The notes: generated by a model from the sequence alone, not told the origin. A stretch of 56,438 nt of DNA from a virus (IMGVR_UViG_3300046170_000155:1-56438), one strand, 5' to 3'; shown: positions 1-20,226, numbered from the stretch's first letter. Numbers and translations are program-made.

Positions 1-120
1 CAGACACCTATCCGAGAGTGGAAGACAGGTGCGAGATACAAAGGAGAGAAATAACCAGAGGCTCCGTGTCCATACAGAACCTCCGAGTATTTAGACAAAG
101 TTTGGTTGGAAACTTTATCT
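1..120 (-). ncRNA. Candidate small structured RNA (three hairpins, may extend beyond window start)
   Basis: Inverted repeats 5-31, 58-83 and 93-120; five A.C mismatches on + become G.U pairs on -. Begins ~7 nt downstream of a minus-strand -10 box. No ORF. Confidence 0.55.
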
Positions 121-126
121 TCTTCA

Positions 127-155
127 AGATTAACAGAAATGGTAGATACATACAA
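127..155 (-). promoter_or_regulatory. Leftward sigma70-type promoter
   Basis: Minus strand reads TTGTAT-17 nt-TAATCT with extended TG (tgtTAATCT). Confidence 0.6.
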
Positions 156-184
156 TTTTATAAAAGTTTGTTTTTATAAAATTG
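153..184. repeat. Perfect 13-bp inverted repeat between divergent promoters
   Basis: CAATTTTATAAAA (153-165) and TTTTATAAAATTG (172-184), 6-nt spacer. Confidence 0.9.
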
Positions 185-210
185 ACATAGGACAGATATC
201 TCTCTAGTGT
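182..210 (+). promoter_or_regulatory. Rightward sigma70-type promoter
   Basis: TTGACA (182-187), 17 nt, TAGTGT (205-210). Confidence 0.65.
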
Positions 211-216
211 GTTTAA

Positions 217-395
217 TTACAAACAGTTCAAGATACTGGCTCTCAAAATATCTTGTCCGATTAAAACATCTGTGAGCGGTCTAGCCAGCCCGTGGGTCGT
301 CCGGTAAGGGACATCCCTCGGTATATTTAAATTTTGGTTGGGCGGGACCGCACAGGGTTAGCTCTACCAATACAAAAAGTTGGGGGGCAGGGGCA
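217..395 (+). ncRNA. Candidate ~180-nt structured RNA
   Basis: GC-rich non-coding island. Hairpin 229-255, long bulged stem 270-290/336-355 enclosing hairpin 291-320, 3' hairpin 361-388. Confidence 0.5.
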
Positions 396-435
396 ATAAA
401 AAAAAATATTCAAAGTTGGGTGCTACTATAAAAAA

Positions 436-627
436 ATGACTTTAGATTATATACAAAATGGAATGAGATTTAAAGTAAACGGGGAACAGATAACTTACAT
501 CAAGAGTAAAAAAATAATCGACACTTGGACTCAGCCAAATCTAAACCCAAAAGTTCTTGAACGATATGTAATCGACAGAATGATTTCTTTAGCTTATCTA
601 TACAAAGAGGAACTAATTCGACTATAA
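436..627 (+). CDS. Hypothetical protein
   Basis: 63-aa ORF, ATG 6 nt after TGcTACTAT (leaderless arrangement). Confidence 0.55.
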   Translation: MTLDYIQNGMRFKVNGEQITYIKSKKIIDTWTQPNLNPKVLERYVIDRMISLAYLYKEELIRL

Positions 628-665
628 TAAAACCTATGGTTTTAGATTTAAATGTTAAGATAAAT

Positions 666-722
666 ATGTCGGCTCCACTAACCGATATCCTCCCATCACT
701 GGCTATTCTTTCGGGGATAGCC
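666..722 (+). promoter_or_regulatory. Structured leader or small RNA upstream of the HNH gene
   Basis: TGtTAAGAT at 653-661; hairpin 666-688 (loop CTCCACTAA), CCTCCC linker, hairpin 701-722 with TTCG loop. Confidence 0.5.
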
Positions 723-744
723 TTATCTAAAAGGAGTTACGCGC

Positions 745-1134
745 TTGAGTGTTAGATGGGAACCAGAAAACGAAACTTACGAGGAATTTAAAAAACGAAG
801 AAGTGATAGTTTTGGAATTTCGGGAATGGGGCAGAAAAAACGAGAAGGCACCGGTAAGAAGAATCTTTCAGAGCTTCGGGAGAAAGCTTTACAAAGAGCT
901 CACTACACATGTGAGTGGCCGGATTGCAATTCTAAAAAATGGCTAGAGATGGCGCATTTAAAAGCAAAGGGTATGGGTGGAGCAAACAGAAACATATCTG
1001 ATGACCCAATGAATGTTTGCATGCTTTGTAAACATCATCATGACATCTTTGACGGCAGACAACAAGTTGGTTCTCAAAGAGAATATACTGCACTACTCAA
1101 AGGATTTCTTGTATTACAATGGAGAATGAAATGA
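745..1134 (+). CDS. HNH endonuclease (terminase-adjacent)
   Basis: CEWPDC...EMAHLK..GMGG...MNVCMLCKHHHD; RBS AAGGAG before TTG; position resembles HK97 gp74. Confidence 0.85.
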   Translation: MSVRWEPENETYEEFKKRRSDSFGISGMGQKKREGTGKKNLSELREKALQRAHYTCEWPDCNSKKWLEMAHLKAKGMGGANRNISDDPMNVCMLCKHHHDIFDGRQQVGSQREYTALLKGFLVLQWRMK

Positions 1135-1412
1135 GTAAAGTTTATGAAGAGCTGAAGGAGTTCAATCCTAAAGCAATGATAATTGAAGATTTTGAAGAGG
1201 CCTATCTTGGTTTTTCAACTGATGGCAAAGCAATCTATGATTTCTACACAATGTTAGATTTAGTTATTGATGGTATCTATGAAGATGCTCCAGAACAACT
1301 AACAGAAGATGAGGCTTATGGCGAAGCCTACGCACATCTTGACTGTAATGTTATTGGCGTTCAAAAAGGTCAATACAGTCCAATCATTATGTATAAAGAA
1401 ATCTATGACTAA
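1131..1412 (+). CDS. Hypothetical acidic protein
   Basis: ORF coupled by ATGA overlap to the HNH gene and overlapping the terminase start. Confidence 0.7.
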   Translation: MSKVYEELKEFNPKAMIIEDFEEAYLGFSTDGKAIYDFYTMLDLVIDGIYEDAPEQLTEDEAYGEAYAHLDCNVIGVQKGQYSPIIMYKEIYD

Positions 1413-2637
1413 CAAGTATGTTCCTAAGTTACCTCCGTTACACGAGGGACAACTCAAAGTAGCTAAATCAGAAGCGCGTTGGAAAATACTATGTGCTGGT
1501 AGACGATTTGGTAAAACAAGACTTGGTGTCCAATTATGTATGGAAGTTGCTCTTAGGGGCGGAAGAGCTTGGTGGGTAGCACCTACTTTTTCTATTGCTA
1601 GAGTTGGTTGGCGTGATATCGCTGCAAGTGCAAAATCATTTCCTAGAGAAATAGAACCAACAGTATCTTTAGCTAATATGCAAATTGATTTAGCTAACGG
1701 AGGCTCTATCGCAGTTCGTTCTGCTGATAATCCACAAAGACTTCGTGGAGAGGGTCTTGACTACTTAGTTATGGACGAGGCTGCATTCGTAAAACCAGAA
1801 GTATGGGCAGAAGTTCTCAGACCTACACTTACAGAGCGTAAAGGTTCTGCTTTATTTATTTCAACACCTATTGGTAGAGATAACTGGTTTTTTGATTTAT
1901 GGGAAAATGCAGACGATGCAGAGAACTGGGAACGATTTAGATTTTCTACTACTGACAATCCTATGATTGACCCCGAAGAAGTAGAGTCTGCTAGAAAAGA
2001 AGTCGGCTCTATAGTTTTTGCACAAGAGTACTTAGCAGAGTTCGTTGACGCAGGTCAAGGTATGTTAAAGCCGGAGTGGATGAATTATTATATTATTGCT
2101 CCAGACGCAGCAGGTAATCTTAAATGTATTGTTGATGGTTCAGAATACTACTTAGATGCCCTACCTAAATACGGAGTTGTTGATTTAGCTACTACTACAA
2201 ATAAAGATTCAGATTACACAGTTATAACAAGTTTTGCACAAACGCCAGATAATAAGCTTTTAATAATAGACATGGTACGACAGAAAATGGAAGGTCCAGA
2301 CATCATACCTGCAATAAAACGAGCAATTCACAAAAATAAGTTACAATATGTAGGTATAGAACGCCAAGGTTTTCAAACCACGATAATCCAGATGGCGCAA
2401 CGAGCTGGTATTCGAGTTAGAAATCTTAAGACGGATAAAGATAAAGTTACAAGAGCTTTACCCCTAGCTGCAAGAATGGAAGCGGGAGAAGTATTTTTAC
2501 TAAGAGATACTCACTGGCTACCAGAAGTAGAGAGAGAAATAATGACTTTCCCAGCAGGTGCTCATGATGATATTATCGACACTTTGTCGTATGGTGTTCA
2601 ACTACTACAAGATAAAAAGAGCTGGAGCGCATATTAA
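1405..2637 (+). CDS. terL: Terminase large subunit
   Basis: Q-motif LHEGQ, Walker A AGRRFGKT, Walker B YLVMDEAA, coupling motif ISTP, nuclease VDLA...HDDIID; likely start ATG 1405. Confidence 0.97.
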   Translation: MTNKYVPKLPPLHEGQLKVAKSEARWKILCAGRRFGKTRLGVQLCMEVALRGGRAWWVAPTFSIARVGWRDIAASAKSFPREIEPTVSLANMQIDLANGGSIAVRSADNPQRLRGEGLDYLVMDEAAFVKPEVWAEVLRPTLTERKGSALFISTPIGRDNWFFDLWENADDAENWERFRFSTTDNPMIDPEEVESARKEVGSIVFAQEYLAEFVDAGQGMLKPEWMNYYIIAPDAAGNLKCIVDGSEYYLDALPKYGVVDLATTTNKDSDYTVITSFAQTPDNKLLIIDMVRQKMEGPDIIPAIKRAIHKNKLQYVGIERQGFQTTIIQMAQRAGIRVRNLKTDKDKVTRALPLAARMEAGEVFLLRDTHWLPEVEREIMTFPAGAHDDIIDTLSYGVQLLQDKKSWSAY

Positions 2638-4079
2638 TGGCTGAAGATAAGTCAAGATTTTCAAAAGCATTAGACTGGTTGAATGCACCAACTGATGCAA
2701 GAGTAAGAAGAGAACAAAAAGGCATTACTGTTAATCAACAGGAATATTCATTTTTAAATCAAGCTGTATACGGTTATAACACCGAATCTGGTTACTTTGA
2801 CCATAAAAAGATAGCAGAAGTAGGTGACGGCACTGGTAACTCAGCAGTTGTCGCTTGTTTAAATGTTTTAGCAACATCGTTTGCTGAACCAGGATTACTT
2901 GTCTCAAAAAGAAACTCCGAAGGAGACTATACAAGAGACATGAATCATCCACTTGCTAGATTGTTTAGAAGACCAAATCCATATATGACACAGCAGTTAC
3001 TTGCTAACTATATTGTTACATCAATTAATGCAGCAGGAGACGCTTTTATATATAAGAATAGGAACGCGAGAGGTGAAGTTGTCGAGCTAGTACCCCTTAT
3101 GCCTCATTTAGTAGAAGCTAAAGGTACACAAAACGAATTAATTACACATTACAATTATCAACCGCAGGGTGGACTTCAAGGTCAAGACAATGTAAGAATT
3201 GACAAGAAAGATATGTTTCACTTAAGACAATCTGTTGACCCTAATGATATGAGAAGAGGAATGGCTCCTCTAAGGTCAGTTTTACGAGAAATTGCTGGTG
3301 ATGAAGCAGCCGGACAATATACTGCCGCTTTATTACACAACATGGCTGTTCCCGGAGTAATCCTCTCCCCAAGAGATGATGCTATGGGTGGTCCAACGAG
3401 AGACGAAGCTGAAGCTATTGCAGATATGTATAAGCAGAAGTTTGGTGGTAAAAACAGAGGTGCTCCTATGGTTTTATCTGGTGCTATGAATGTTGAAGTT
3501 GTATCTTTTTCTCCAGACCAAATGAAGTTAGCCGAATTAAGAAGAATACCAGAAGAAAGAGTTTCTGCTGTACTTGGCGTTCCAGCTGTTCTTGCAGGAC
3601 TTGGTGCTGGTCTCGATTCTGCTACATATTCAAATACGAAAGAACTTAGAGAGTTCTTTACAGAGTCAAAAATGGTCCCAATGTGGAACATGGTTGCGAG
3701 TGATTTGACTCATCAATTGTTACGACCAGAGTTTGACGGTAACGATAATCAATACTGCGAGTATGATATCGGAAGCGTTAGAGCTTTAGCTGATGACAAA
3801 GACAACCTCTATAAACGCATGAACACTGCTGTACAAGGGGGTTGGGTAACAATTGGCGAAGCAAGAAAAGTTGTAGGACTAGAGGCTGATAATAGACATG
3901 ATGTTTATTTAAGACCTCTTAACATGATTCAAGTAACAGAAGATGGTAGTCCACTTTTAAATGAAGGTGGAACAGATACAGCTGACAAACCAACTAATGA
4001 TAATGACGATGATGAGTCTAAAGCAACATTGACTACTCGACTTTACCTCCAGAGTACAGAAGAGAAGAAGAAGTATTGA
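2637..4079 (+). CDS. Portal protein, HK97 family (probably continues to 5322 across indels)
   Basis: V.ACLNVLA, RPNPYMT, GDAFIY, GMAPL, N.AVPGVIL, VLGVP..LAG, ATYSN, WVTIGEAR; directly after terL. Confidence 0.95.
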   Translation: MAEDKSRFSKALDWLNAPTDARVRREQKGITVNQQEYSFLNQAVYGYNTESGYFDHKKIAEVGDGTGNSAVVACLNVLATSFAEPGLLVSKRNSEGDYTRDMNHPLARLFRRPNPYMTQQLLANYIVTSINAAGDAFIYKNRNARGEVVELVPLMPHLVEAKGTQNELITHYNYQPQGGLQGQDNVRIDKKDMFHLRQSVDPNDMRRGMAPLRSVLREIAGDEAAGQYTAALLHNMAVPGVILSPRDDAMGGPTRDEAEAIADMYKQKFGGKNRGAPMVLSGAMNVEVVSFSPDQMKLAELRRIPEERVSAVLGVPAVLAGLGAGLDSATYSNTKELREFFTESKMVPMWNMVASDLTHQLLRPEFDGNDNQYCEYDIGSVRALADDKDNLYKRMNTAVQGGWVTIGEARKVVGLEADNRHDVYLRPLNMIQVTEDGSPLLNEGGTDTADKPTNDNDDDESKATLTTRLYLQSTEEKKKY

Positions 4080-5322
4080 CTACACCTACAAGACTTGACC
4101 AAGGAAAAAGTTGCACTTGATAAAGATATGTTTGACAATCCAGGCAGAAGCTATTGAAAGGTCTAAAGAACTAAGTTGTTCTCTTGGTGTACACAGTCAT
4201 GAAGTAGATGGCAAAGAAGTCTTTATGCCTTGTAAGACACATGAAGAATATGAAGAAGCTGTCAGTAAACCTAAAAAGTCTAAAGACATTGAGGAATTAA
4301 AAGTTTCTTTAGAAGAAGCTGAAACAATGTACGAAAAAGGAGACAAACTGAATAGTCCAGAAGAAAAAGCACCAGATAAAGTAACAAACTTTCCTAAGAG
4401 TGGAGATAATCAGAAAATAAGTTTATCTAACTCACAACATAAACAATTTCCCTAGTCACGCTTATGTTAAAGATTTAAAAGAAAACTGGCCAGAGATTTG
4501 GAGAAGAGCAGGTACCGGTGGTAATCCTCCTACTTCATTTACTGGTAACGATGCTTTCAATAGATGGACAGCTTACAAAGGCGGAGACAGAAGCGAATCA
4601 GTTCTTAACTGGGTTAAGAGAAGAGAACGCTTTATGAATCGTCACAAGAAGAATAACAGACTTAACGGAACTATTGCTGTTATGAAATGGGGCGGTGTAA
4701 CTGCTGGTGGTGTTTCACAAATGAAATCAGTTGTTAATGATTACAAAAAAGTTATTAGAGAGCGTAGAAAAAAATCTCTTAATATAGCTGAAGATTACTT
4801 ATTGAAAGCAGTATCTGAGTAGAGTAAGAACTGCTCTTACTAAAAAAGTAAAAGACCATAACTGCTAAAAATCCAAAGCATAGAGCAACACTGAGAATGC
4901 TTATTGCAGTATTCAACAGAGGTGTTGGTGCATACAGAACTAACCCCGGTTCAGTCAGAGGCAATGTTACATCTGCTGACCAGTGGGCAATGGCCAGAGT
5001 TAACGGTTTTATAAGAGCATTAAGAAGTGGTAAGTTTAGAAGAAAACCTTACGACCAAGATTTACTACCAAGCTCACATCCATTGTCATCTAAAAAATCT
5101 GGAACTAAAGCAGAGTCAGTTAGAGCAGGACAAGCAGTTAGTTGGTCAATCAATAAAGACCCAGACCCACCTTCAATTGTTCACGGTATTGTTACATCAG
5201 TAAGTGATGACGAAGCAACTGTTATGGTATGGGCTCGTTTAGAAAATGGTCAACATCAGAAGACAGATAGAAGTGTTAAAGTGCTTATCTCAAAGCTCAG
5301 AATAATATCTGACTTTAGATAA
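4040..5322 (+). CDS. Multi-domain C-terminal extension of the portal (frameshifted in this assembly)
   Basis: ORF pieces 4111-4455, ~4452-4822 and 4897-5322 join through single-base indels, with no internal RBS or start seen. Contains a C.GVHSH...MPC..H module, an RGVGAYRTNP...QWAMARV module and an SH3/Tudor-like tail. Confidence 0.65.
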
Positions 5323-5401
5323 TAAAACACTAAAAGTCGAAATCATATTATACAATAATTAAAACGCGCTTCTACAAATTTATATTGTAGAATATTGAGG
5401 T

Positions 5402-6648
5402 ATGATGAACAACGAATCTAAAAATATAGACATAGAGTTAAAAGATGACTCTGGTCAAGTAGAAGCAGTATTCAGTCTATTTAACTCTCTTGATAGTGAT
5501 GGAGATGTTGTTGTACCGGAGCTGTCAAATCTGGTTTTAAAAATAATCAAGTACCTATGGTTTGGTCTCACAAATGGGACATGCCTATTGGTAAAGGTAC
5601 AATCGCACAAGATAATGATAAAGCAGTATTTAAAGGCGAATTTTTTATGGACACAGAGTCTGGTAAAGAAGCTTATAATCTTGTAAAAAATATGGGCGAT
5701 ATGCAACAATGGTCTTTTGGCTATAAAGTAAACGATTCCGAGTTTGCTAAAGCAGAAACACAAAATGGTGAAACAGACGCTAGATACCTTAAAGACCTTA
5801 CAGTTTACGAAGTTTCTCCTGTTTTAGTTGGAGCTAATCAAGATACATATACTCTTGCTATAAAGTCCAACACAGAATTACTTAAAGAAATTACAAAAGA
5901 AAAAAGTGGAGAAGAAGAAGTTGAAGTTTCTTCTACCTGTGCTTGCAACTGTGGTTCTAAAAGTGATGAAGATGACAAAGAAGAAATGAAGTCTTGCAAA
6001 TATCACGAAGGTGGTGCTTGTGCTAAAGATGGTAAAAAATCTGAAGCTAAAGGTAAAGGCGAGTGTAAATATGGTAATGGAGGTAACTGTATGAAAGAAT
6101 ATGATGACGAGAAAAAGTCAGACGAAGATTTAGAAGTTTCACAGGAAGACAGCAAGTCTTTCTCTGAAGAAGTCAAAGATGTGCTTGCTGCATTGGATGA
6201 CTTAGTAGCCCGAGCAAAAGCTATTTCTATGCTCAGAGGCGAAGATGGGAGAAAATTAGGCGTTAAAGCCACCGAAGCACTTCGTGCAGTCGCAGACGAC
6301 TTAAACGATGCTTGGACCGAGATTGATGAGTTCATCGGACATGTCGGAACCGAGGGTGCTTTGGAGTTAGAAGTAGATGAAGAACTTGTGGAAGATGAGC
6401 CAGCCGAATCTGAAGAGGTAGCTGAGGCTTCAACTGATACTATTGATGTTGAAACAGAAGTCGAAGAAGTTACTGAGGAAGAAGCACCAGCAGAGGAATC
6501 TGTTGATGTAGAACCGGAAGATGAAGCTGCTGAAGAAGAAACTCCAGAAGATAACACTGATTCCTCTGACGAAGAATTTGATGCTGAGTGGGTGAGGGCA
6601 CAGCAAATTATTGCTGAATCCTTAGTCGAAGAAATAGAAGAAGTATAA
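5402..6648 (+). CDS. Prohead protease (HK97 family) with long acidic C-terminal extension; frameshift ~5520
   Basis: F..LDSDGDVV / MVWSHKW..PIG, WSFGY, YEVSPVLVGAN; between portal and capsid genes. Confidence 0.92.
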
Positions 6649-6674
6649 GCAATAACGATTGGAGAAATCCCAAA

Positions 6675-7918
6675 ATGAGTAAACAAAAAGAACTCATGGA
6701 CCAAATCGCTGTTAAAAGAGCAGAATTAAAATCTGTTTTTGAATCCGCTGAAGACGGCAAGTACAACTCTGACCAAAAAGAAGAGATTAAGTCAAGAAAT
6801 GACGAACTTGCTGGATTAGTCGAAGACCTTTCAATTGAGAAGAAAAAAGCTTCCAATGAAAAAGCTCTCGAAGTAGATTCAAAACCCGTTGCAGAAATGC
6901 CGTTAGCTAATAACGAAGGTTCAGAAGCTAAATCTGTTGGACAGCTATTTACAGAGTCCGAAGCCTACAAAATTATGTAGGTACAGGGGTCAAAGGTATT
7001 GACTCAAAAGTTGAGACAAAAACATCACTAACAACTACAGGATATCCACCGGAAGTCTTAAGACAACCTGGAATCTTGGAGACATCTCTTAGAGACCCTA
7101 ATGCTGTTATATCATTATTTGATGTAATTAACACAGACCAAAATGCTTTCTCATACCTTGAGGAAACAACCTTCACAAACAATGCAGCTGAAGCTGCTGA
7201 AGGTTCAGCAGTCGGTGAAGCAGCATTAGCTTTCACAGAGCAAACAGAAGCAATCCGTAAAATGGGTATTTTCATCCCAGTTACAGATGAATTATTAGCA
7301 GACGAATCTGGTATTCAAGGTTACTTGAACTCTAGACTTCAAACAATGATTAGACTTCGTATGGACAGCCAACTCCTTAGTGGAGACGGTACTGCTCCAA
7401 ACTTAGAAGGAATCTTGGACGCTGGTAAATCTGGTGTTGGTAGCACAGACTTTAGCTCCTATGCAGGAACTTTAGGAAAAATTGGAGCTATCTACGGAGC
7501 AATCACTGACATTCGTGTCAACGCATTCACAGAACCAGATGCAATTATTATGCATCCTAATGACTGGAATGACATTGTCACATCTGTAGGTGCAGACTTT
7601 GCAGGAACTTCATCCGCTGGATATACAGAAAAGTCACCACTTTTCGTAGCAGCAGGTGGAATGGGCGCAGGTCCTTCAGCACAAATCTGGGGACTAAAAG
7701 TAGTTCCTACAACCGCAATTTCCGCAGGTACAGTACTTGTTGGTAAATTCGGTGGTGGCGAAGCAGCTAATGTCGTTATGAGACAAGGTATGGAAATAGC
7801 CGTATCTGATTCACATAGCGATTTCTTTACAAAGAATCAATTAGCAATCAGAGCTACTATGAGAGTCGGTTTCCCTGTTTACAGGCAAGCAGCTTTTCAT
7901 AAACTAACAAATATGTAA
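6675..7918 (+). CDS. Major capsid protein (HK97 fold); frameshifts ~6975 and ~7050
   Basis: Coiled-coil delta domain ending EAK|SVGQLF; EG...E...F, IPVTDELLAD, LLSGDGT, IMHPNDW, IWGLKVV, FTKNQLAIRA..R...AAF; RBS GGAG. Confidence 0.95.
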
Positions 7919-7941
7919 TATTCGTTAGTAGCGAAATTTCA

Positions 7942-7975
7942 AGAGGGCCGGGTAAAACCGGCTCTTTTGTTTTTA
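7942..7975 (+). terminator. Rho-independent terminator after capsid gene
   Basis: AGAGGGCCGG-GTAAAA-CCGGCTCTTTT stem followed by T-rich tail. Confidence 0.85.
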
Positions 7976-7995
7976 TAAGGTAGAATATAAACATT

Positions 7996-8255
7996 ATGTC
8001 AGAATATACAAAACCAGAAAAAACAATTTGGAAGATAAGGATGATGGTCCTATTTGGAAGGTCCTATGGCAGAACTACCTAAATCTGGGTCTCAAAGATT
8101 GCAAAAGCAGTAAAGAAGTATCTAAAGAATGGTTAAAGAGCAAGGTTGGGGACCCTGAGAAGAGAAAAAAGTCAGCACCTATAAAAAAATCTGCTCCTAA
8201 GAAAAAGTCGAAACCAAAGCTGTTAAACCATCAGAAGAAAATAAAGGAGTCCTAA
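7996..8255 (+). CDS. Small Lys/Ala/Pro-rich head-associated protein (frameshifted)
   Basis: ATG 7996 after TAGAAT; reading continues across frames to KAVKPSEENK; typical slot after capsid gene. Confidence 0.5.
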
Positions 8256-8893
8256 ATGGCTCTTTGTAGCGTAGTGATGTAGAAACATTTCTGAAATTGA
8301 TTTAAATTCACATGTTGAAGCTTCAGTTACAAATACTTTATACCTTATGTTGATGCTGCTATTAAGCGGTTACTTGTCATGATGTTGAACAAGCTACATT
8401 TACTAGAAGTATTTTGAGGGAAGAACAACAAGATATTTCTAAGACACATTCCTATTGCGTCTATTACTTCTGTTCTGAAGACAGTAACACATTGGTATCC
8501 GGTAATGAAAAAGATTATGTTCATTACGATAACGGTAGATTAAGAAGAATAGTAGTTAGATGGTCTGGAATAAAACCTAAAAATATTTCAGTCACTTATG
8601 TTGGTGGATATCAATCAGCTGACATTCCAGAACAAATAAAACAAACAGCTGCAAGAGCTTCTGGTAGATTACTTTTAACTTCCTTACAAAACTCGGCTAA
8701 AGCTGACACAGGTCAAATCTCAAGTCATCTAGCAGACAATACTACACCTACTAATTTTGACATTGCCTTGTCTGAAAGAATTGGAGACTATGATATAGCA
8801 TTTGCGGATGTTGTAGTTCAAAATTTACAACCTGTTTTAACTAATGCTGACATGGCTATATTAAACCCATTTAAAAGCAGATTCTTTGTATAA
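8256..8893 (+). CDS. Head-tail connector/adaptor (gp6/gp15-like); 5' part frameshifted
   Basis: RBS AAGGAG, ATG 8256; ISVTYVGGY...IPEQIKQ.A, SERIGDY, ILNPFK. Confidence 0.8.
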
Positions 8894-8899
8894 TAGAGT

Positions 8900-9535
8900 A
8901 TGGTACATAGAAAAGCCCCTTCCCTCGAGGAAGCAAGGGAGTTCTTTCTAGCAGACCCTAATAAAATGCTCCAAGAATGGGCAGATGAGTGGGGCGTCAC
9001 ACACGAAAGAGTTCGTCAATTAAGAATTGAATCTGGCGTTCCTCAACGAGGTGCTTACAATCAAGAAACCGCCGAATCAATATTAGAAGTTATTAGAACT
9101 GGTCGTGGTGGTTTAACTACACCTAGAACTTATGAAGATGTCAATATAGGCTAGAAAGATTTAAAACCTGGATAGAAGAAGAAGAAGGTTTAGCGAACGT
9201 GTCAAGAAGCTCAAAAAGAAGCAGCTAAAAGTTTAAAAGACCCTATTGAGAAAGAATGTAAATATTGTCGTCAATGGAAAGCAGTAGAAGACTTTAAAAG
9301 AAACCAAAAATACTTAGACGGATATACTAAATTCTGTATTGATTGCTTACAAGTATTAAAAGAAAAAAAAGAAGAACTTGGTGATGAGAAAATTAAAACT
9401 ATGTTTGTCTTGTAAGAAAGATAAAAAGACATTCAGATTTAGCTAAAATCCCAAACTCAAAAGATGGTTAAAATTATTTTGTAAAAATTGTCACAAGACA
9501 AACAATAAAAAGAAAAGGCGTAGAAATGCCCAGAT
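8900..9535 (+). CDS. HTH plus tandem Cys4 zinc-binding protein (frameshifted)
   Basis: Sigma70 region-4-like LQEWADEWGVTHERVRQL; downstream frames give KECKYCRQWK..EDF..N..Y.DG..KFCIDC and a second CLSCKKDK...DG...FCKNC. Confidence 0.65.
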
Positions 9536-9765
9536 ATGATTATAAATGTTTATCCTGTGAAACAAGTTATGAGATAACACATAAAATAACTGAAGACCCA
9601 GAAGTTTTATGTCCTAAAGATAATGTAGTTTGCAAAAGACAAATAAGTAAAAATGTAAGGTTTGAAACACCAGTAGATATTGACTGGGAAAAAGACCCTA
9701 AAGATTTATCTGAAAGTTCATTTAAACAATATCAAAAAGCAAAGAAACAAAAATTTCAATGGTAA
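9526..9765 (+). CDS. FmdB-family zinc-ribbon protein
   Basis: MPRYDYKCLSC...E......CP....KRQIS signature. Confidence 0.85.
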   Translation: MPRYDYKCLSCETSYEITHKITEDPEVLCPKDNVVCKRQISKNVRFETPVDIDWEKDPKDLSESSFKQYQKAKKQKFQW

Positions 9766-10937
9766 AAGAAGAAATAGAAGATATTCAAAACGGAAATGGT
9801 AGATATTTCTTTTCTTATCAGTCCTATCAAATATTAAAAGACCCAATTTCTACTAACACTTTTACCTTTACAGCTTTAGTACCTGTAAAACAATTTGCAA
9901 TTGACAGACCTAATTTAAAGCAGTTAATACCTATACACCAAGATGTGAAAAAAACTCCAGTGTATAAAGATGAGCAAGAAAACTTTTTAAGAGCTTTAAA
10001 AGAACACGAAGGCGAAGCAAACATATTTCATCATAAAAACCACGGTATAACTATTTTTTGTGAAAATATTAAAATAGAAGAAAGCAGAAATTTGTTGGAA
10101 GTAACAATCAACGATTACTACAGAGAGGGAATTATTGACGGCTCTCACATTTATGAATGTATAAAAAATACTCCTGCTGTTGATTTACCCTAAAAAATGT
10201 TTTATAAAACTAGAAATAATTGTTGGTTTACATAATAGGCATGCTGAAGATATTATAAAAGCAAAAAATACAAAGATAAGAACAGTTAACAAAGCTTCTT
10301 TAAGTAAAACAGATATTGAGTGGATTGATAATTCTTTAAAAGATACTGGATACGAAGATACCTTAGACCATGCAACAGTATTGTCTTTAATAAACTTATT
10401 TAGAAATAACAAGTACGATTCAGAAATAGATGAACAACCTATAAACAGCTACTCTGACAAAAACATGGTTGTTGAGATTATAAAAAAAACAAAGATGAGT
10501 ATAAAATATTTTCAGAAATAATAAAAGACATACTTTACTTATACGATTATACAAATGTCGTAGGTCAAGAACTATGGTCAGAGAAAAAAGGAACCCTAGG
10601 AAGTTCTGGTATATCTCTACCCTATAAACAAAAACATTACGAATTTCCAATGATGAAAAAAAAGCTAGACTATAAATTTCACGATGCTGTTACATTTCCG
10701 TTACTTAACGGATTAAGAATGTACATAATATTTATAGAGGGTAAAGCACAGTGGTCTAAAGATTTTAATAAAATTCTTGAAACCTATAAAGCTTTGATAC
10801 CAGAATTAATAAAGATAATTAGAGACCACAACAAACAAATAGGATATAATGTACACCTATTGGGTAAAAGTAAATTACTTTACAGTATTATTTACAAAGA
10901 ACTTCTTATGGGAGACTTGTTAAATCAATTTCAATAA
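9759..10937 (+). CDS. AIPR-like (ParB-superfamily) protein, motifs diverged; frameshifts ~10190 and ~10480
   Basis: FHHKNHGITI, GIIDGSH, IKLEIIVG, P..SYS.K, DILYLYD, FPLL..LR, W..DF, LGKS in the order seen in AIPR proteins; ~390 aa when joined. Confidence 0.6.
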
Positions 10938-10957
10938 TCTTGTAGTAAAGTAGTTGT

Positions 10958-11293
10958 ATGCCTATAAGACACAGAAACTTACCGGAAACTTGCACAATTC
11001 AAACAGTATCCGAAACAGCAGTTGATGAAAGAGGTTTACCTAGTTCATCTTGGGCTGACACATACACAAGCGTAAAAGCAAAGTTTGAAAGCCAAGGAAT
11101 AGAAGAAGATAGAGATGGTAGAAATACCACTGTTGAAACATTTGGAATTTATATAGAACCTAATGTTACTGTTGTTCCGGGTGATAGACTGGTCAAAGGT
11201 AGCGAATACCATGAAATAATTAGCGTTCAGCAAGTAAAGGATAGATATGGAAAAGAATGTTATAAGTATCTTGAATCTCTTGTAAGAACCTAA
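10958..11293 (+). CDS. Head-closure protein (SPP1 gp16-like)
   Basis: 111 aa; TIQ...DERG...W, GDRLV...YHEIISV pattern; synteny. Confidence 0.8.
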   Translation: MPIRHRNLPETCTIQTVSETAVDERGLPSSSWADTYTSVKAKFESQGIEEDRDGRNTTVETFGIYIEPNVTVVPGDRLVKGSEYHEIISVQQVKDRYGKECYKYLESLVRT

Positions 11294-13334
11294 TGCCACA
11301 ATATTTAAAATTTTTCAAAGAGGGTGTAACCCTAAATAAACCAAAATCTAATGCTGGCCGTAAAGGTGGAGCAGTTGGTGGTTTTCGTAACAGACTTTAT
11401 AAATTTGGTAAAACAGCTGGTGATGTTAACGCTGTTGTACAATCACAATTTATAAAAAATGCAAGAAGAAGTGCATATACATACGCGCGTGGCGGAGGTT
11501 TTATAGCTGCTGCAACTTCCGGAGATTTTAGAAAAAAATACGGTTCCGCTCAATCTTTAGCACTTCGTGGAGCAAGAGTTGGTGTAGGTAGATTGTCTGG
11601 TATGGCTATAAATCAAGTTGTACCAAGAAGTGTGGGTCCTATCCTTGGTCGTCTAGCAAGAAGAGAGTTAGGTGGATATATCTCTAAGAGTCCAATGTAC
11701 CAAATGGCAAATAAAAAAATTGAATCAAAACTTACTGGTTTTTTTAATTCTGATGCACAACCTCATTATCATCATGTAGTTACAAACATGAATATACAAG
11801 AAGTTTTAGATTTACAAATAGAAAGAACAGCACAGCTTATAAGAGCAAGCGCTCCAGATATTTCTTCTGGTCAATACATGTTAGGGGTTGGTGCTAGTGA
11901 ATTAGGTATAAATATAAAAGATACAAGATTAAGACAAGACCAATATGATGAAGAAGCCGGAATGAGTTTTGATGAAAATTATAAACTTAAAACTCTTAAA
12001 GGTTACTCAAATACTGGAACTAAGAAAAACCCAGTAATTTCTAAAGAATATGTTGAAATGGATATATTTGGATTCACAGAACCCGGTAGAGCTAGAGAAC
12101 TATTACTTAAATCTGTACATACAAATCGTGCAAAAGTACCTAAAGCTAAAAAAGGCAAAATGGGACAACAAATATTTACAGGTGATGTAAGGGTTGGAAC
12201 AAGTAGAAAAAATGGTGTAACAGCAGATTTATTTCCTTGGATATGGCTTGTAGAATACGGTGGACCAATTACACAACGAAGTTTCTAGCTGGAGTAGAAA
12301 AGAAAACAAACCAGTAGTAAAAGATGTCAAAAAATATATACCACCAACATTGTTTGTGACCTAGAAGCGTTCAAGCAGTTAACAATATGAAGTTTGATGG
12401 TGCCAAAGTAAAAGTGCAAATGAAAGCTCCTAGAGTTGGAGGAGTAAAAAATCCAGTAGAACTTATGAATAACATACTTAGTGAAAAAGGCAGATATGAC
12501 CAAATGATTAAGAAAAAAGGTTTAGCTATTGAAAAAGACGGAAGAATAAGTTACAAACCTAAAAGTTTGTTGGCAGCTATGAATAGAAAAGGAACAGGCA
12601 GACATTTTAGCCAAGGTATAAAAAAAGAAAATGTAGCTGGAAGAAATAGAAGATTTTACAAATATAATAAAAAACATGATATAGCTGGTGTAAAAGTACA
12701 TAATACTCATGGAGTTGCTTATTCTCAAGAACTACAGGATGCTATTGGTGTTAAGTTTGCACCCGATTCAATCACAGCAACTGTTAACTTTAAAAATGTT
12801 GGAAAAATTAAAGGTGGAGTATCAGCTAGAGAAAAGTTTCTTACAAACATACTTACTGATAAAAATCCTAGTAAAACACGCGGTGGTGCTTCAAGAGCAG
12901 GTCTTCTTAACAATGTTGAGATGTTTGGGGAACAAAATAGTAAAAGAGCTTTTAATCAAACACAAGCTTCTGATTATGTTGATTTTGACACTTTCGATGT
13001 ATCTGGAAACACAGGATTTGGAAAAATTAGTGGTCAAAGACTTTCAAACTATATAAGTAAAAACTACAATGTTAGTGTTCGTAGAGGTAGCAAAGGAAGC
13101 GGCTCTGGAGCATATGAAGTTACATTTACAAGAAAGAATAAAGGAACTAAAAAAGGTGGTAGTAAGAGAAGTGGAAGTCCTACTGATAAAAGATATCAAT
13201 CTGGAGCAAAACGACCTTTACAGAAACAAAATAAATCTGCTCAAGCAGCTGCTAGAGCACTTGTTGAAAATGCTAACTATGAAGAAATAATATCAGCAGC
13301 ATCTTTTTTCTATAACTCTCCAGATGAAGGTTAA
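11293..13334 (+). CDS. Very basic protein with embedded HK97 gp10-like motifs; frameshifts 12285-12365
   Basis: TAQLIRASAP...G, WIWLVEYGG...YIPPTLFVTRSV; lies between head-closure and tail terminator; K/R/G-rich. Confidence 0.6.
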
Positions 13335-13352
13335 GTGGTAGGATAAATAATT

Positions 13353-13850
13353 ATGGGTATAAAAGCAGTAGGCGCACAGTTTGACCAAAATCAGAATTTT
13401 CCACCAGATGCAGAAATTATATTTCGTGAATGGTGTATCAATACAACAGCTATAACAAATTTATGTAGTTCAAGAGTAGCTACTAGATTACCTCGTAGTG
13501 CAGAATTACCTTTTTTAACAATATTTAATGCAGGAGGAACACTTATGTCTCCTACATCTGAAGCAGCTGTAACTGGAGCTGCTATAACAGTAGATGCTTA
13601 TGCAGGACGCTGGGGTGGTGGAGGAACTACTTCTCAACCAGATTATGCAAACGCTTATGCTTTAGCAAATGCTGTAGCTGAATCTGCTTTTAAAATGAAA
13701 AGTACAAGAGTTGTTACTCCTACAACTAACACAGCAGCAGTTATTTACAGCATGGAGGTACAAGGATTACCTTCTCGCATAGAGGAGACTGACACCGGAT
13801 TAGGACATTATCAGCTATCATTAATAATGTATTACCGAGGACTAGATTGA
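13353..13850 (+). CDS. Tail terminator/completion protein (DUF3168-like)
   Basis: PDAE, RVATRLP...LPFLTI, ITVDAYA, A..LANAV; upstream of major tail gene. Confidence 0.75.
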   Translation: MGIKAVGAQFDQNQNFPPDAEIIFREWCINTTAITNLCSSRVATRLPRSAELPFLTIFNAGGTLMSPTSEAAVTGAAITVDAYAGRWGGGGTTSQPDYANAYALANAVAESAFKMKSTRVVTPTTNTAAVIYSMEVQGLPSRIEETDTGLGHYQLSLIMYYRGLD

Positions 13851-13851
13851 T

Positions 13852-14124
13852 ATGAAGAAGATAAAAGTAAAAATTAATCCTTTGTTGCTAGAGAAGACAA
13901 CTGTTCGAGATACTGTAACAGGAATAGTCTTTAGTCACAAGGGATGGGCAGAGATAGACATGGCCGTCTGGGAGCGCCTTAAAGATGCTACTTATAAACA
14001 GGGAACACAAAAAATCTCTGTTTTAATAGCTGATGAGGAAAAACTAGACGACTCTACAGCAGAGGACGACAAGGAATCTGTTGAAGAGGTAGTGGAAGAC
14101 TTCTTTATTGCTGAAGAAGAATAA
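13852..14124 (+). CDS. Hypothetical protein
   Basis: 90-aa ORF with GAGG RBS, acidic C-terminus. Confidence 0.7.
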   Translation: MKKIKVKINPLLLEKTTVRDTVTGIVFSHKGWAEIDMAVWERLKDATYKQGTQKISVLIADEEKLDDSTAEDDKESVEEVVEDFFIAEEE

Positions 14125-14206
14125 CCGGCAAAGCTGAAATCGACTTGAAAAAGTCGGCTGAGCTCAGCTGATAAGTATAAGTATAAGATATGTTAGGAGA
14201 TAACAA

Positions 14207-14887
14207 ATGAGCTTCAATACAAGCGGTACTATATCCGAAGTATTAATAGGTACAGGTGTTCTCTATTACGCAGATAGGACTACAAGTTCTTTAGTATTCC
14301 CAGCCGATAACAGCGGCGCATGGGAAAACCCTACAACACTATCAGTTCCATTTTCAGAAGTTGGTTATTCTGAAGATGGCTGGACTTTAGAAGTTGATAA
14401 AACTTTTGAAGATGTTATGGTTGCCGAAGAAGTAGACCCTATTAAGACTCTTAAGTCAGCACAAGAAGTAAGACTAACTGGTGAACTATCACAAGCTGGT
14501 ATTGACAAACTTCAAATCGCAATGGGTGGCGGTGTTAAAGCAGAAGATACAATTACTGCTACAACAACACAAACCACTGGTAGCGATTTTGATACAGGAT
14601 ATGATTCATATATCCCACCTTTGTCAGATACTTTCACAGAATATGCGATGGTATTACACACAGATGGTCCAGCTGGTGCAGACAGACAGTTCCACATTCC
14701 TAGAGCAGTGAATGTTGGTTCTTTCGCAATGAGTCACCAAAAGGCTCCAGCAAAAGTTAGTTTGGCAACAGAATTTAAACTTCTTGTTCCAGATTCAACT
14801 TTAAATGTTGGTTCTACAAGTGGTGCATACTACTTGTTCAGAGTCATAGATAACACTAACGATACTGACGAGTTAGATATTAACTAA
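14207..14887 (+). CDS. Major tail (tube) protein
   Basis: VLIG.G.LY.A, VGYSEDGWTL, V.EEVDPI; strong RBS AGGAG; precedes tail chaperones. Confidence 0.85.
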   Translation: MSFNTSGTISEVLIGTGVLYYADRTTSSLVFPADNSGAWENPTTLSVPFSEVGYSEDGWTLEVDKTFEDVMVAEEVDPIKTLKSAQEVRLTGELSQAGIDKLQIAMGGGVKAEDTITATTTQTTGSDFDTGYDSYIPPLSDTFTEYAMVLHTDGPAGADRQFHIPRAVNVGSFAMSHQKAPAKVSLATEFKLLVPDSTLNVGSTSGAYYLFRVIDNTNDTDELDIN

Positions 14888-14909
14888 AAAATTAGATAGG
14901 AGAATATAA

Positions 14910-15263
14910 GTGGAAAAGTTTAAAGACTTTGATGAGGCTTTAGAAGCCGATAATTTATTAAAATTGCAGATGAAGGTAGCAGGAAAAACATACGATTTAC
15001 CAGCTACCTTACCTGCAAAAGCAGTCCTTTCGCAAATGAAGATGGCCGAAGACGGAAACAACCAAGACCTATCAGCAATTGCGGACTGGGTGGAATCAAT
15101 AGTGGGTAAAGATAATTTCAACTCAATGCTAGATGATGGTGTGGGCTGGGAGAAGCTTAATGACATACTTGTATGGTTATTAGAAGCTTACGGACTAGCA
15201 TCACCAGAAGAAGTTGAGGAAGCACAAGAAGCCGCTGCCGAAGAGGGTGATAGCCCAAAATAA
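14910..15263 (+). CDS. Tail assembly chaperone (gpG)
   Basis: RBS AGGAG, GTG start; KDFD...GKTYDLPA.LPA; ends at slippery site. Confidence 0.85.
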   Translation: MEKFKDFDEALEADNLLKLQMKVAGKTYDLPATLPAKAVLSQMKMAEDGNNQDLSAIADWVESIVGKDNFNSMLDDGVGWEKLNDILVWLLEAYGLASPEEVEEAQEAAAEEGDSPK

Positions 15264-15607
15264 CTTGGTCTCCAGGTGACATTTTAAGTTACTGGGGACA
15301 AGTAGAAGCAGACTTTCTTAGGTATTACGGCATTGATAAACCTCAAGATGTTGAATATCGTAAATTTCTTAGACTATTAAGAAACTTACCCGCAGATGGT
15401 TCAGTTTTTTACGGCCGACTTCGTGAAGACCAAATTACTATTGACGAAGAAACTGGAAAAGTATTCCGTAAAGAAGAGTATAACAAAGAAAGTAAACAAG
15501 CTAGAAGAATGCTTCAAAGACAACACAATCGACATAACAAACCTCGAGAGAGAGTTTCTATAGACCAGTTTCTTGGTGGTAAATCTGGAATTACAGGCAA
15601 AGGTTAA
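15254..15607 (+). CDS. Tail assembly chaperone -1 frameshift extension (gpGT)
   Basis: Slippery C CCA AAA at 15254-15260 just before TAA; -1 frame open for 117 codons (WGQVEADFLRYYGID...RLLRNLP) ending just before the tape measure gene. Confidence 0.85.
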   Translation, partial: PKITWSPGDILSYWGQVEADFLRYYGIDKPQDVEYRKFLRLLRNLPADGSVFYGRLREDQITIDEETGKVFRKEEYNKESKQARRMLQRQHNRHNKPRERVSIDQFLGGKSGITGKG

Positions 15608-15616
15608 TAGATAGCA

Positions 15617-19744: not shown

Positions 19745-20226
19745 TGATAAAGAAGATAAAAGATAATATAGGTTTAGTTGCAACAGCTATTGCCCTTATG
19801 GGTTCAATTGGTGCAGGAGTGCAATCAGTCGGACAAATAGTTAATACACTTCAAGGTATTGATGAAAGAATGGTTGGAATAGAAATAGAGTTTGAACAAC
19901 TCAAACAAGACACAATGGTTTCAAATGATATTGCAGTTCTTTATGAAAAAATAGAAGACTTAGAAATAGCTGCACAGAATGTTGGCAAGTTTAATGAAGA
20001 GATAGCTACCTTACAAGCTAACTTATATAACTTAGAGCAACAGGTTAGAGATGGTGGGTTTGATTTAGATAGATATTACTTACTAGAAAAGTGGGAGTAT
20101 CAAGACCTTAATGACTCAATAACTAGAGCCGAAACACAAGTTCAAGTCGTTACTAATAGTTTGTGGGAACTTAACGATTTAAAAACTAGATTAGCTTACT
20201 TAGAAGCAGCAGGTCATGGACACTAA
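19744..20226 (+). CDS. Hypothetical protein, N-terminal membrane segment plus coiled coil
   Basis: KKIK then hydrophobic IGLVATAIALMGSIGAGV, then heptad repeats. Confidence 0.7.
   Translation: MIKKIKDNIGLVATAIALMGSIGAGVQSVGQIVNTLQGIDERMVGIEIEFEQLKQDTMVSNDIAVLYEKIEDLEIAAQNVGKFNEEIATLQANLYNLEQQVRDGGFDLDRYYLLEKWEYQDLNDSITRAETQVQVVTNSLWELNDLKTRLAYLEAAGHGH

Follow-up and report, generated by a model that had tools for sequence, protein, structure and literature searches.

A conserved RNA motif with a covarying kissing-loop fold between the terminase genes of marine siphoviruses

The c4 RNA of phages P1 and P7 and the CI RNA of P4 carry short loops that are complementary to segments of the same leader, and these loops and segments change together between phages. 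In the hok/sok system, in par of pAD1 and in sar of P22, the leaders are controlled by antisense RNA. Packaging of the phi29 type depends on an ATPase that requires a packaging RNA (pRNA), and no small terminase takes part. Small ribozymes are typically compact, closed by a pseudoknot-like lock, rich in invariant unpaired bases and resident in phages. The put RNAs of phage HK022 are ~70 nt long and consist of two stem-loops and a short triplex; they are promoter-proximal, function independently of protein and act over more than 10 kb (PMC9378689). In addition, more than 10,000 candidate RNAs have been predicted from IMG/VR, and the main text of that survey places 14 of them consistently upstream of a putative large terminase gene (PMC10690425).

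Here we describe a structured element upstream of the packaging genes of a virus from the same data source as the orphan candidates of PMC10690425. The window, by which we mean the whole stretch of DNA analysed, is the complete IMG/VR record IMGVR_UViG_3300046170_000155, a linear sequence of 56,438 bp with an estimated completeness of 97%. Judging from covariation, a group of related marine tailed phages carries at this place a conserved, intricately folded RNA of ~145-190 bases; it is a real conserved structured RNA motif that has a well-supported kissing-loop fold and is absent from Rfam 15. We infer its transcription, its strand and all aspects of its mechanism from the DNA sequence.

The put RNA of HK022 may serve as the nearest working analogy. 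In both systems a structured RNA directly follows a promoter of the host type and opens a long, one-directional operon with internal terminators, and no dedicated protein is evident for either. The put RNAs belong to the early operons of a lambdoid phage, whereas the element precedes the structural operon of a marine siphovirus and has five helices over ~140 nt together with a loop-loop pairing. Because size and architecture differ, the element is not a member of the put family; antitermination is, by analogy, a candidate role for it. The resemblance to c4 and CI RNA lies in the complementary short segments within one leader, which co-change between related phages. In contrast to those RNAs, both complementary segments of the element are hairpin loops, and these lie 41-46 nt apart, as would suit an intramolecular kissing complex; moreover, neither immunity nor lysogeny genes were identified in this phage. 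No c4-type family was assigned, because the element has no Rfam match of any kind.

Genomic setting and distribution

The window contains 43 ORFs of at least 120 aa, 35 on the + strand and 8 on the - strand, and since all eight of the latter overlap larger + strand ORFs, coding was taken to be one-directional (+). Among the encoded proteins are an HNH endonuclease (745-1134), a large terminase (TerL, 1405-2637) that matches annotated terminase large subunits, and a portal (2637-4079). From the further presence of an HK97-type capsid protein, a prohead protease and a tape measure of 1375 aa, the phage was identified as a siphovirus. A PHROG search of some replication-side genes returned no regulator. 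The element lies within the first 435 bases, which are non-coding, as the contig begins inside an intergenic region. In the near-identical loci L003, L004 and L143, a small terminase gene (terS; phrog_4102, E 1.6e-32) ends ~540 nt upstream of the element. The first two of these are 97% identical to the window over the shared ~4.3-4.6 kb, and the five proteins tested from L143 are 100% identical. On this basis, the element was placed between terS and terL. The gene order, TerS, non-coding DNA, element, 63-aa ORF, HNH, TerL, is constant: TerS was found upstream in all 19 metagenome loci that offer at least ~780 nt of upstream sequence, and HNH and TerL were found downstream wherever the contig was long enough (36 metagenome loci). 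The GC content is 0.50-0.53 at 251-400, as compared to 0.25-0.26 in the adjacent 101-250 and 401-500, and it is mostly 0.3-0.45 further downstream.

The 63-aa ORF directly after the element had no informative match in PHROG, Pfam or the Atlas. By tblastn, 35 of the 36 metagenome loci have it 184-240 nt downstream of where the element starts; the remaining locus has only 25 nt of flank. A conserved GTGCTAnnAT-like motif, located 6-13 nt ahead of its ATG, may act as a translation signal or as a promoter of the extended -10 type; the consensus promoter scan reported no promoter at this motif.

To survey relatives, we searched viral contigs with TerL and obtained 204 relatives among 212 candidate stretches, from which the best 80 were kept. 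Blastn detected the element in 43 of these 80, at 72-100% identity. The other 37 fall into three groups. Twenty-one begin inside or after the downstream ORF and are hence uninformative; 11 form a clade with 65% TerL identity that also lacks the 63-aa ORF and HNH; and five (L009, L010, L011, L049 and L067) keep the 63-aa ORF and carry other sequence, or almost none, upstream of it. A covariance model gave no match in the 65%-TerL clade or in those five loci, and the element is absent from close relatives with 93-94% identical TerL. A search with TerS yielded 29 loci, 18 with the element and 11 without it by the model, and one of the 18, L167 (100.8 bits), is clearly more divergent.

Pattern searches gave a similar distribution. 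A 19-base core pattern was found in 39 viral stretches, all but one on contigs from the earlier TerL search. A 17-base pattern, which detects near-exact cores only, was found in 43 metagenome stretches, 36 of which the covariance model confirmed as full-length; its five matches in the genomes of 185,579 species were all left unconfirmed by the model. The same species' genomes contained no TerL relatives, and no host or prophage was found there. Blastn with window positions 150-440 against the INPHARED phages gave no match, and the INPHARED relatives of TerL are all below 30% identity. As far as sampled, the motif thus appears confined to one clade of marine siphoviruses. We rejected the idea that its core is more conserved than the flanking genes, since identity at 300-349 (0.80) is similar to that of TerL (0.7-0.96); in six representatives compared with the window, core identity exceeds only that of the directly adjoining sequence (0.36 on the upstream side, 0.6-0.7 within the ORF).

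Between clades, homology to the window begins at ~201-204, in the promoter, or at 275-297, and in the element-less loci L009-L011 it begins exactly at the ATG of the 63-aa ORF (436). Promoter and leader therefore behave as one swappable cassette, and because related loci have the same ORF with other upstream sequence, the cassette is not essential. These element-less loci share an upstream region with two inverted repeats of the TTCACAA..TTGTGA type; beyond this region, L009 has a different GC-rich segment of ~190 nt, L010 and L011 have one hairpin, and L049 has almost nothing.

Comparison with Rfam 15 at gathering scores, over the whole window and both strands, gave no match. In E-value mode, positions 100-520 gave only four noise matches (E 1.9-9.9), which were to a fragment of the Na+ riboswitch lying outside the element and to unrelated families from eukaryotes or viruses; no riboswitch class matched the element, and six related element-less loci and window positions 600-800 gave nothing usable. 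ARAGORN found no tRNA or tmRNA gene in the window. In a full-text search of the literature, the titles and abstracts of the matches listed contained no description of the element, and the main text of PMC10690425, as searched, contains no kissing-loop element between terS and terL. The element may already be among the unnamed candidates of that survey.

Covariation and the fold of the element

The minimum free energy (MFE) fold of the + strand has -59 kcal/mol and z = -2.5, and that of the - strand has z = -1.8, with 4 of 200 shuffles as good in either case; taken from one sequence, the fold is a modest gain over chance. Pairing was assessed in two alignments, a structure-blind MAFFT alignment of 29 sequences, 24 of them distinct (A1), and a model-fitted alignment of 61 hits, 36 of them distinct (A2). 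In A1, 96.2% of 624 cells were paired, as compared to 31-36% when the partners were slid; in A2, 96.9% were paired, and slid controls over both alignments gave 29-37%. Changes on both sides were seen at 15 of 26 pairs in A1 and again in A2, and none of 500 shuffles attained the observed covariation. On this evidence, five helices are backed by covariation: P1, P2, P2b, P3 and a 6-bp kissing pairing between the loops of P1 and P2 (Table 1).

Table 1. Features of the element and its surroundings, in window coordinates
Feature	Position	Strand	Basis or observation
Terminator-like hairpin, 13 pairs and T-run	55..86	-	Terminator scan
Perfect 13-nt inverted repeat, 153-165/172-184	153..184	.	Repeat search of L004 (97% identical)
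Sigma70-type promoter: -35 TTGACA 182-187, 17-nt spacer, -10 TAGTGT 205-210	182..210	+	Motif, predicted
P1 hairpin, 13-nt loop	229-235/249-255	+	Two-sided changes at all 7 pairs; 88.7-90.1% of cells paired
Kissing 5' half CUGGCU, in P1 loop	236-241	+	Pairs with 283-288
P2 hairpin	276-279/290-293	+	100% of cells paired (36 distinct sequences)
Kissing 3' half AGCCAG, in P2 loop	283-288	+	Pairs with 236-241
P2b hairpin	299-302/309-312 plus 296:315	+	Covariation at 296:315
P3 helix	319-322/347-350	+	99.3% of cells paired
Conserved 3' tail CACAGGGUUAGCU..	351-366	+	Near-invariant in A1
P4, variable 3' hairpin with A-rich loop	362-388	+	MFE fold
GTGCTAnnAT-like conserved motif	419..429	+	Alignments
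63-aa ORF, directly after the element	436..627	+	ORF list
Promoter-like site TTTAAA, 17 nt, TATAAT (10 of 12)	446..474	-	Consensus scan

The kissing pairing is intact in 100% of its 216 cells (36 distinct sequences), and four of its six pairs change on both sides. We found five fully complementary forms, CUGGCU/AGCCAG, CUGACU/AGUCAG, CACGCU/AGCGUG, CUAGCU/AGCUAG and CUGACC/GGUCAG, and a sixth, CUGACC/GGUUAG, which contains one G.U pair and occurs in L167. In P2, 25 distinct sequences have U-A and 11 have C-G at pair 277:292, and pair 276:293 is G.U in 34 of 36. In P2b, pair 296:315 is A-U in 20, G.U in 9, G-C in 5 and something else in 2, and at the closing pair 299:312, A-U and A.C were each seen once and G.U once or twice; in the clade of the window this hairpin is extended, 294-296 also being paired with 315-317. 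Pair 322:347 of P3 is C-G in 20, A-U in 12 and U-A in 4. P3 encloses an AU-rich stretch (323-335) and a conserved G-rich stretch (336-346), and both the latter and the unpaired stretch 351-361 hardly vary in A1. Variation is found in the linker 256-275, including 1-4-nt indels, so that the spacing between the kissing halves varies as well; this tolerance of indels argues against coding and against a rigid DNA site. At the place of P4, other clades form different stems around an A-rich loop, as judged from the per-clade sequences by eye and with no formal count. An A-run (398-406) follows P4. A small hairpin of 4 bp (352-355/362-365) is possible and was left out of the fold; it is 95.8% paired, shows no covariation and is mismatched in the window itself.

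The element had been proposed in a first-pass annotation of the window, made from this one sequence, and the comparison with relatives bears out its 5' and GUCC hairpins. The 5' hairpin CAAGATA/TATCTTG corresponds to P1, the GUCC-GGUAAG-GGAC hairpin (299-312) is conserved across relatives, the AU-rich loop is present at 323-335, and the 3' hairpin is found at ~362-388 in the MFE fold. The GC island claimed at 217-395 agrees with the base composition, and the failure to recognise a tRNA, a tmRNA, an SRP RNA or a known ribozyme was matched by the ARAGORN and Rfam results. Homologs whose substitutions break the pairing had been named as evidence that would count against the proposal; the opposite was seen, in that compensatory changes keep the pairing in relatives. 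The exception is the ~20-bp bulged stem that had been drawn between 270-290 and 336-355. Its MFE counterpart, of 22 pairs, is paired in only 77.5% of cells (24 distinct relatives), a value attained by 384 of 500 shuffles, and in covariation it does not exceed the controls. The part 270-274/351-355 is broken in most relatives, and the GCGG/CCGC part is compatible everywhere but competes with the covarying P2 and P3. The 5' and GUCC hairpins are retained, and the long stem gives way to P2, P3 and the kissing pairing 236-241/283-288, which had not been seen. An all-against-all analysis of column covariation was also tried and set aside, being too noisy because of the clade structure.

Strand, promoters and terminators

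Watson-Crick covariation fits either strand. G.U pairs, which can form on the + strand only, were counted against A.C pairs, which would be G.U pairs on the - strand. A2 contains 51 G.U cells versus 5 A.C cells. A single terminal pair, 276:293, contributes 34 of these 51, and without it the count is 17 G.U versus 5 A.C; in A1 it is 34 versus 4. The G.U pair in the kissing helix of L167 works on the + strand only and would be a C.A mismatch on the - strand, and in three clades the variable 3' hairpin contains, by eye, G.U pairs that fit only the + strand. These counts make it considerably more probable that the functional RNA is read from the + strand than from the - strand.

The predicted + strand promoter (Table 1) would place the transcript start at about 216-219. 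The first-pass annotation had called it a consensus TTGACA promoter. Its -35 hexamer is indeed present, at 17 nt from TAGTGT, but the consensus promoter scan omits the site because its -10 matches at three of six positions. For the next gene the first-pass annotation had likewise claimed a separate promoter; the conserved GTGCTAnnAT-like motif lies ahead of that gene's ATG, and the scan reports no promoter there. Each of the 26 representative loci has a TAnnnT hexamer whose last base lies 13-15 nt before the equivalent of window position 226, with a TTGACA/TTGCAA-like hexamer 16-17 nt further upstream, amid flanks that are unrelated between clades. The mean best promoter score is 7.9 of 12, as compared to 6.3 in shuffles under the same positional limits, and only 4 of the 26 loci reach 9 of 12. 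The right arm of the inverted repeat at 153..184, which was seen only in the window's clade, overlaps the -35 hexamer, and the repeat is a possible operator.

In none of the 26 loci did the interval from the element to the ORF contain a + strand terminator-like site. Transcription initiated around 217 would hence be expected to continue through the ORF into HNH and TerL, and the element, with no + strand terminator of its own, resembles the leader of an operon more than a separate gene of ~180 nt. What the first-pass annotation had described as an undescribed phage non-coding RNA upstream of the packaging genes is thus upheld as to structure, conservation and absence from Rfam, and doubtful as to a free-standing gene; the roles it put forward (decoy, regulator, packaging) are hypothetical. 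Further along the operon, after the capsid gene, a strong + strand terminator is predicted at 7940-7969. In public sequencing runs, most of the 3-kb stretch was found in 14 DNA runs, and 6 RNA runs contained 6-9% of its sampled words. Logan contigs of four RNA runs cover parts of 601-2900 (HNH, TerL) and none cover 1-600; as these data are contigs rather than reads, the gap over 1-600 is uninformative on expression, strand and ends.

On the - strand, a promoter-like site lies at 474-446, inside codons 4-13 of the 63-aa ORF, with a predicted start at ~439 from which transcription would read back through the element. The site is also present in L026 and L033; of 19 representative loci, 14 have it with a score of 10 of 12, and in L068 another - strand site reaches 9 of 12. 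Because the site is located in conserved codons, its conservation may merely reflect coding, and promoter-like sites are no commoner in the window than in shuffles (61 found versus 58 expected in 1-20000). The hairpin at 86-55 is the strongest - strand terminator-like site in the whole window. Two further clades have hairpins of unrelated sequence with T-runs at the corresponding position (-121 to -171), and the stems of these hairpins, paired by hand, contain G.U pairs on the - strand only. A strict scan found a - strand terminator in 9 of 26 loci and none in 17; six of these 17 have, by eye, a large-loop hairpin with a T-rich tail there, the loop of which resembles the P1 loop. From these signals, a convergent antisense transcript of ~390 nt, from ~439 to the terminator at 86-55, is likely and would overlap the element.

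Possible roles of the element

The reading that we find best supported, and hold only tentatively, its probability being somewhat short of even, is that of a + strand, cis-acting leader of the head and packaging operon. The RNA would be made from its own sigma70-type promoter and would form the promoter-proximal leader of a long operon comprising the 63-aa ORF, HNH, TerL, the portal and onward. It would fold into a compact body, in which four short hairpins or helices are locked by the 6-bp pairing of the P1 and P2 loops and the conserved stretches 336-346 and 351-361 are left unpaired, and it would act in cis on its own transcript. Two modes of action can be envisaged. The leader might alter the transcribing polymerase in a put-like manner, allowing it to read through internal terminators such as 7940-7969, or it might be a docking site for a factor that sets the expression of the leader-proximal genes. 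The overlapping convergent antisense transcript would probably tune the leader. A cis-acting leader is suggested by the host-type promoter, the position at the head of the operon, the internal terminator, the lack of a terminator of its own and the conserved unpaired bases. Against it stand a soft strand assignment, in which most G.U cells come from one terminal pair, the weak -10, the five related loci that have the same ORF and dispense with the element, and a size about twice that of put with another architecture. In addition, the motif before the ATG could be a separate promoter, which would leave the element transcript without an obvious cis target, and the promoter-like site and terminator that bracket the region on the - strand are the signature of a discrete gene on the opposite strand. 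The other readings (trans-acting RNA, antisense RNA, ribozyme, DNA site, pRNA-like RNA) are ranked below the cis-acting leader.

Some of the same observations would fit a free-standing or processed + strand small RNA that acts in trans as a regulator, decoy or sponge, with read-through into the ORF being incidental. Such an RNA would have its own conserved promoter, the conserved motif ahead of the ATG could be a separate promoter for the ORF, its unpaired stretches are very strongly conserved in primary sequence, and close relatives differ in whether they carry the cassette, a pattern like that of accessory genes. However, neither a + strand terminator nor any other defined 3' end was recognised in the 26 loci, and we consider this role unlikely.

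As the main rival, the functional RNA might be the ~390-nt - strand transcript itself, antisense to both the leader and its promoter, which would down-regulate the late operon either through pairing or through transcriptional interference; the conserved hairpins would then belong to this antisense RNA. The element resembles hok/sok, par and sar in being a structured 5' leader that may be overlapped by a convergent transcript, although the antisense RNA is here a prediction. It differs from those systems in its intramolecular loop-loop covariation, which is not known from them, and in the downstream 63-aa ORF, which, by eye, shows no obvious membrane helix and no resemblance to a membrane toxin. 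The - strand has a promoter-like site and a terminator-like hairpin that would bracket a discrete gene, and the + strand has no such bracket. This terminator-like site is the strongest on that strand in 56 kb of + coding genome, its counterparts in two more clades are of unrelated sequence with G.U pairs on the - strand only (hand-paired), the promoter has a perfect TATAAT and recurs in most representative loci, and all of the Watson-Crick covariation would suit an antisense RNA equally. The G.U counts, with or without the terminal pair, the mismatch that the kissing helix of L167 would then contain and the G.U pairs of the 3' hairpin in three clades all point to the + strand instead. Moreover, the - strand promoter lies in conserved codons and such sites are no commoner than chance in this AT-rich genome, and the strict terminator is missing from 17 of 26 loci, apart from the large-loop hairpins in six of them. 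We therefore consider it unlikely that the antisense transcript is the functional RNA.

A self-cleaving or processing element, whether a ribozyme of a new small class or a target for an RNase, might shorten the late polycistronic RNA at its 5' end. This role, already raised by the first-pass annotation, would agree with the compact shape, the pseudoknot-like loop pairing, the near-invariant unpaired nucleotides and the location in a phage, but no ribozyme family of Rfam 15 matched and no cleavage site could be deduced, and we regard this role as highly improbable. A site acting at the DNA level (cos or pac, an origin, or protein-binding inverted repeats), in which the covariation would reflect paired half-sites, is more improbable still. 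The location between terS and HNH/terL would suit it, and the ends of 17 of the 36 metagenome contigs, which fall 180-540 nt upstream of the element, could hint at a nearby genome end. These ends are scattered over more than 100 nt, however, and lie upstream of the element rather than within it; five separate helices covary, including all seven pairs of one stem, the spacing of the kissing halves varies with the linker indels, and G.U is tolerated where A.C rarely is. The genome may have a physical end (cos) around window position 1, although the contig ends cluster only loosely and at no single base.

The least probable reading is a phi29 pRNA-like packaging RNA whose loops pair between molecules to form a ring on the portal, for which the two loops with covarying complementarity, the position next to the packaging genes and the length (~120-170 nt; ~150 nt for the element) would speak, and against which stand the lack of any sequence or structure match to pRNA in Rfam even at E<=10, the lack of a terminal helix joining the 5' and 3' ends, the TerS, HNH and classical TerL of this phage and the relatives with nearly identical TerL that do without the element. 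The loops covary in the phi29-type manner, and sequence reads the same for pairing within and between molecules. To our knowledge, no need for a packaging RNA has been shown in phages with TerS, HNH and TerL. That the loop pair acts between molecules, forming multimers that aid packaging in such a phage, seems very improbable; if true, the phi29 group would no longer be the only one with a packaging RNA.

Orphan structured RNAs of phages are common in metagenomes, and few of them come with comparable internal evidence, which here consists of five covarying helices, six co-varying loop versions, a fixed place between terS and terL and signs of an antisense transcript. The motif is compact (~140 nt) and directly testable in vitro, and the natural compensatory loop variants provide ready mutants. 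The six versions of the loop pair may constitute a specificity code, by which each lineage would control its own late operon only. If the element is trans-acting or pairs between molecules, it would represent a new kind of phage RNA tool. If the cis-acting leader is put-like or binds a factor, it would show how an abundant set of uncultured marine siphoviruses can time or protect late transcription without a recognisable Q- or N-type protein.

A second conserved element upstream of the HNH gene

In addition to the structured RNA between terS and terL (the first element), we found a second conserved non-coding element in the window. The 115 blastn hits comprised 23 distinct full-length variants; 21 of these carry an identical 32-nt stretch within the element, and the remaining two depart from it at a single position. 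The second element was also present in loci from which the first element is absent (L009, L067). It contains a hairpin, GGCUAU..AUAGCC, for which a covarying form, GGCUAA..UUAGCC, was observed, and in the minimum free energy fold the Shine-Dalgarno sequence of HNH, GGAG, is predicted to pair with a CCUC segment of the element. No match to the element was found in Rfam. It may act as a translational gate for HNH or, alternatively, as a DNA site. A 39-aa ORF at window 636-755 is probably not a gene.

Features of the window and related loci
Feature	Sequence	Position	Strand	Description
Terminator-like hairpin	window	55-86	-	strong; T-run
Second conserved non-coding element	window	666-725		between 63-aa ORF and HNH gene
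Intrinsic-terminator-like site	window	7940-7969	+	strong; 12 pairs, 7 G-C, T-run
terS-downstream block	L004	2330-2500
terS-downstream block	L009	1-180
terS-downstream block	L010	2610-2790
terS-downstream block	L049
GC-rich segment	L009	260-420		~160-190 nt; several possible helices
One hairpin, then ACACAGGAGG	L010	2880-2940		also in L011

Features surrounding the first element

A strong terminator-like site is present on the minus strand of the window, in a genome that codes on the plus strand. Terminator-like sites were found at the matching relative position in L033, L052, L043, L065, L062 and L066. Across three clades, such minus-strand sites recur at this position in sequences that are unrelated to one another, which implies that antisense transcription would cross the first element and its promoter.

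In six related loci (L026, L058, L063, L020, L016 and L056), a hairpin, GAGACCGG..CCGGUCUC, lies approximately 125-165 nt upstream of the first element, ahead of its promoter. The 19-nt loop of this hairpin is a near copy of the P1 loop of the first element, including CUGGCU, and therefore could also pair with the P2 loop, the kissing partner of P1.

Different cassettes occupy the position of the first element in loci that lack it. The GC-rich segment of L009 was unique among the loci compared, and neither this segment nor the hairpin of L010 and L011 was matched in Rfam.

Variation and conservation on the terS side

The genomes are mosaic around the terS side. L112 shares 4.6 kb with the window at 97% identity, but for the 7 kb that precede this shared part (L112 4605-11639, upstream of the equivalent of window position 1), no match at E≤1e-5 was obtained anywhere in the window. 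The right end of the window (53.7-56.0 kb) is matched by sequence upstream of TerL in the clade whose TerL identity is 65%.

Directly downstream of terS is a conserved non-coding block of approximately 250 nt, which contains C-rich repeats as well as a palindrome of the CCCCCGGGGG type. Beyond the block are two inverted repeats, TTCACAA-N10-TTGTGA, that look like operators. The ends of many related contigs fall within or near this block, which could be the site of cos/pac or of the late-operon control region.

A terminator-like site after the capsid gene

The plus-strand terminator-like site lies directly 3' of the major capsid gene. Tail genes downstream of it would need their own promoters or read-through.
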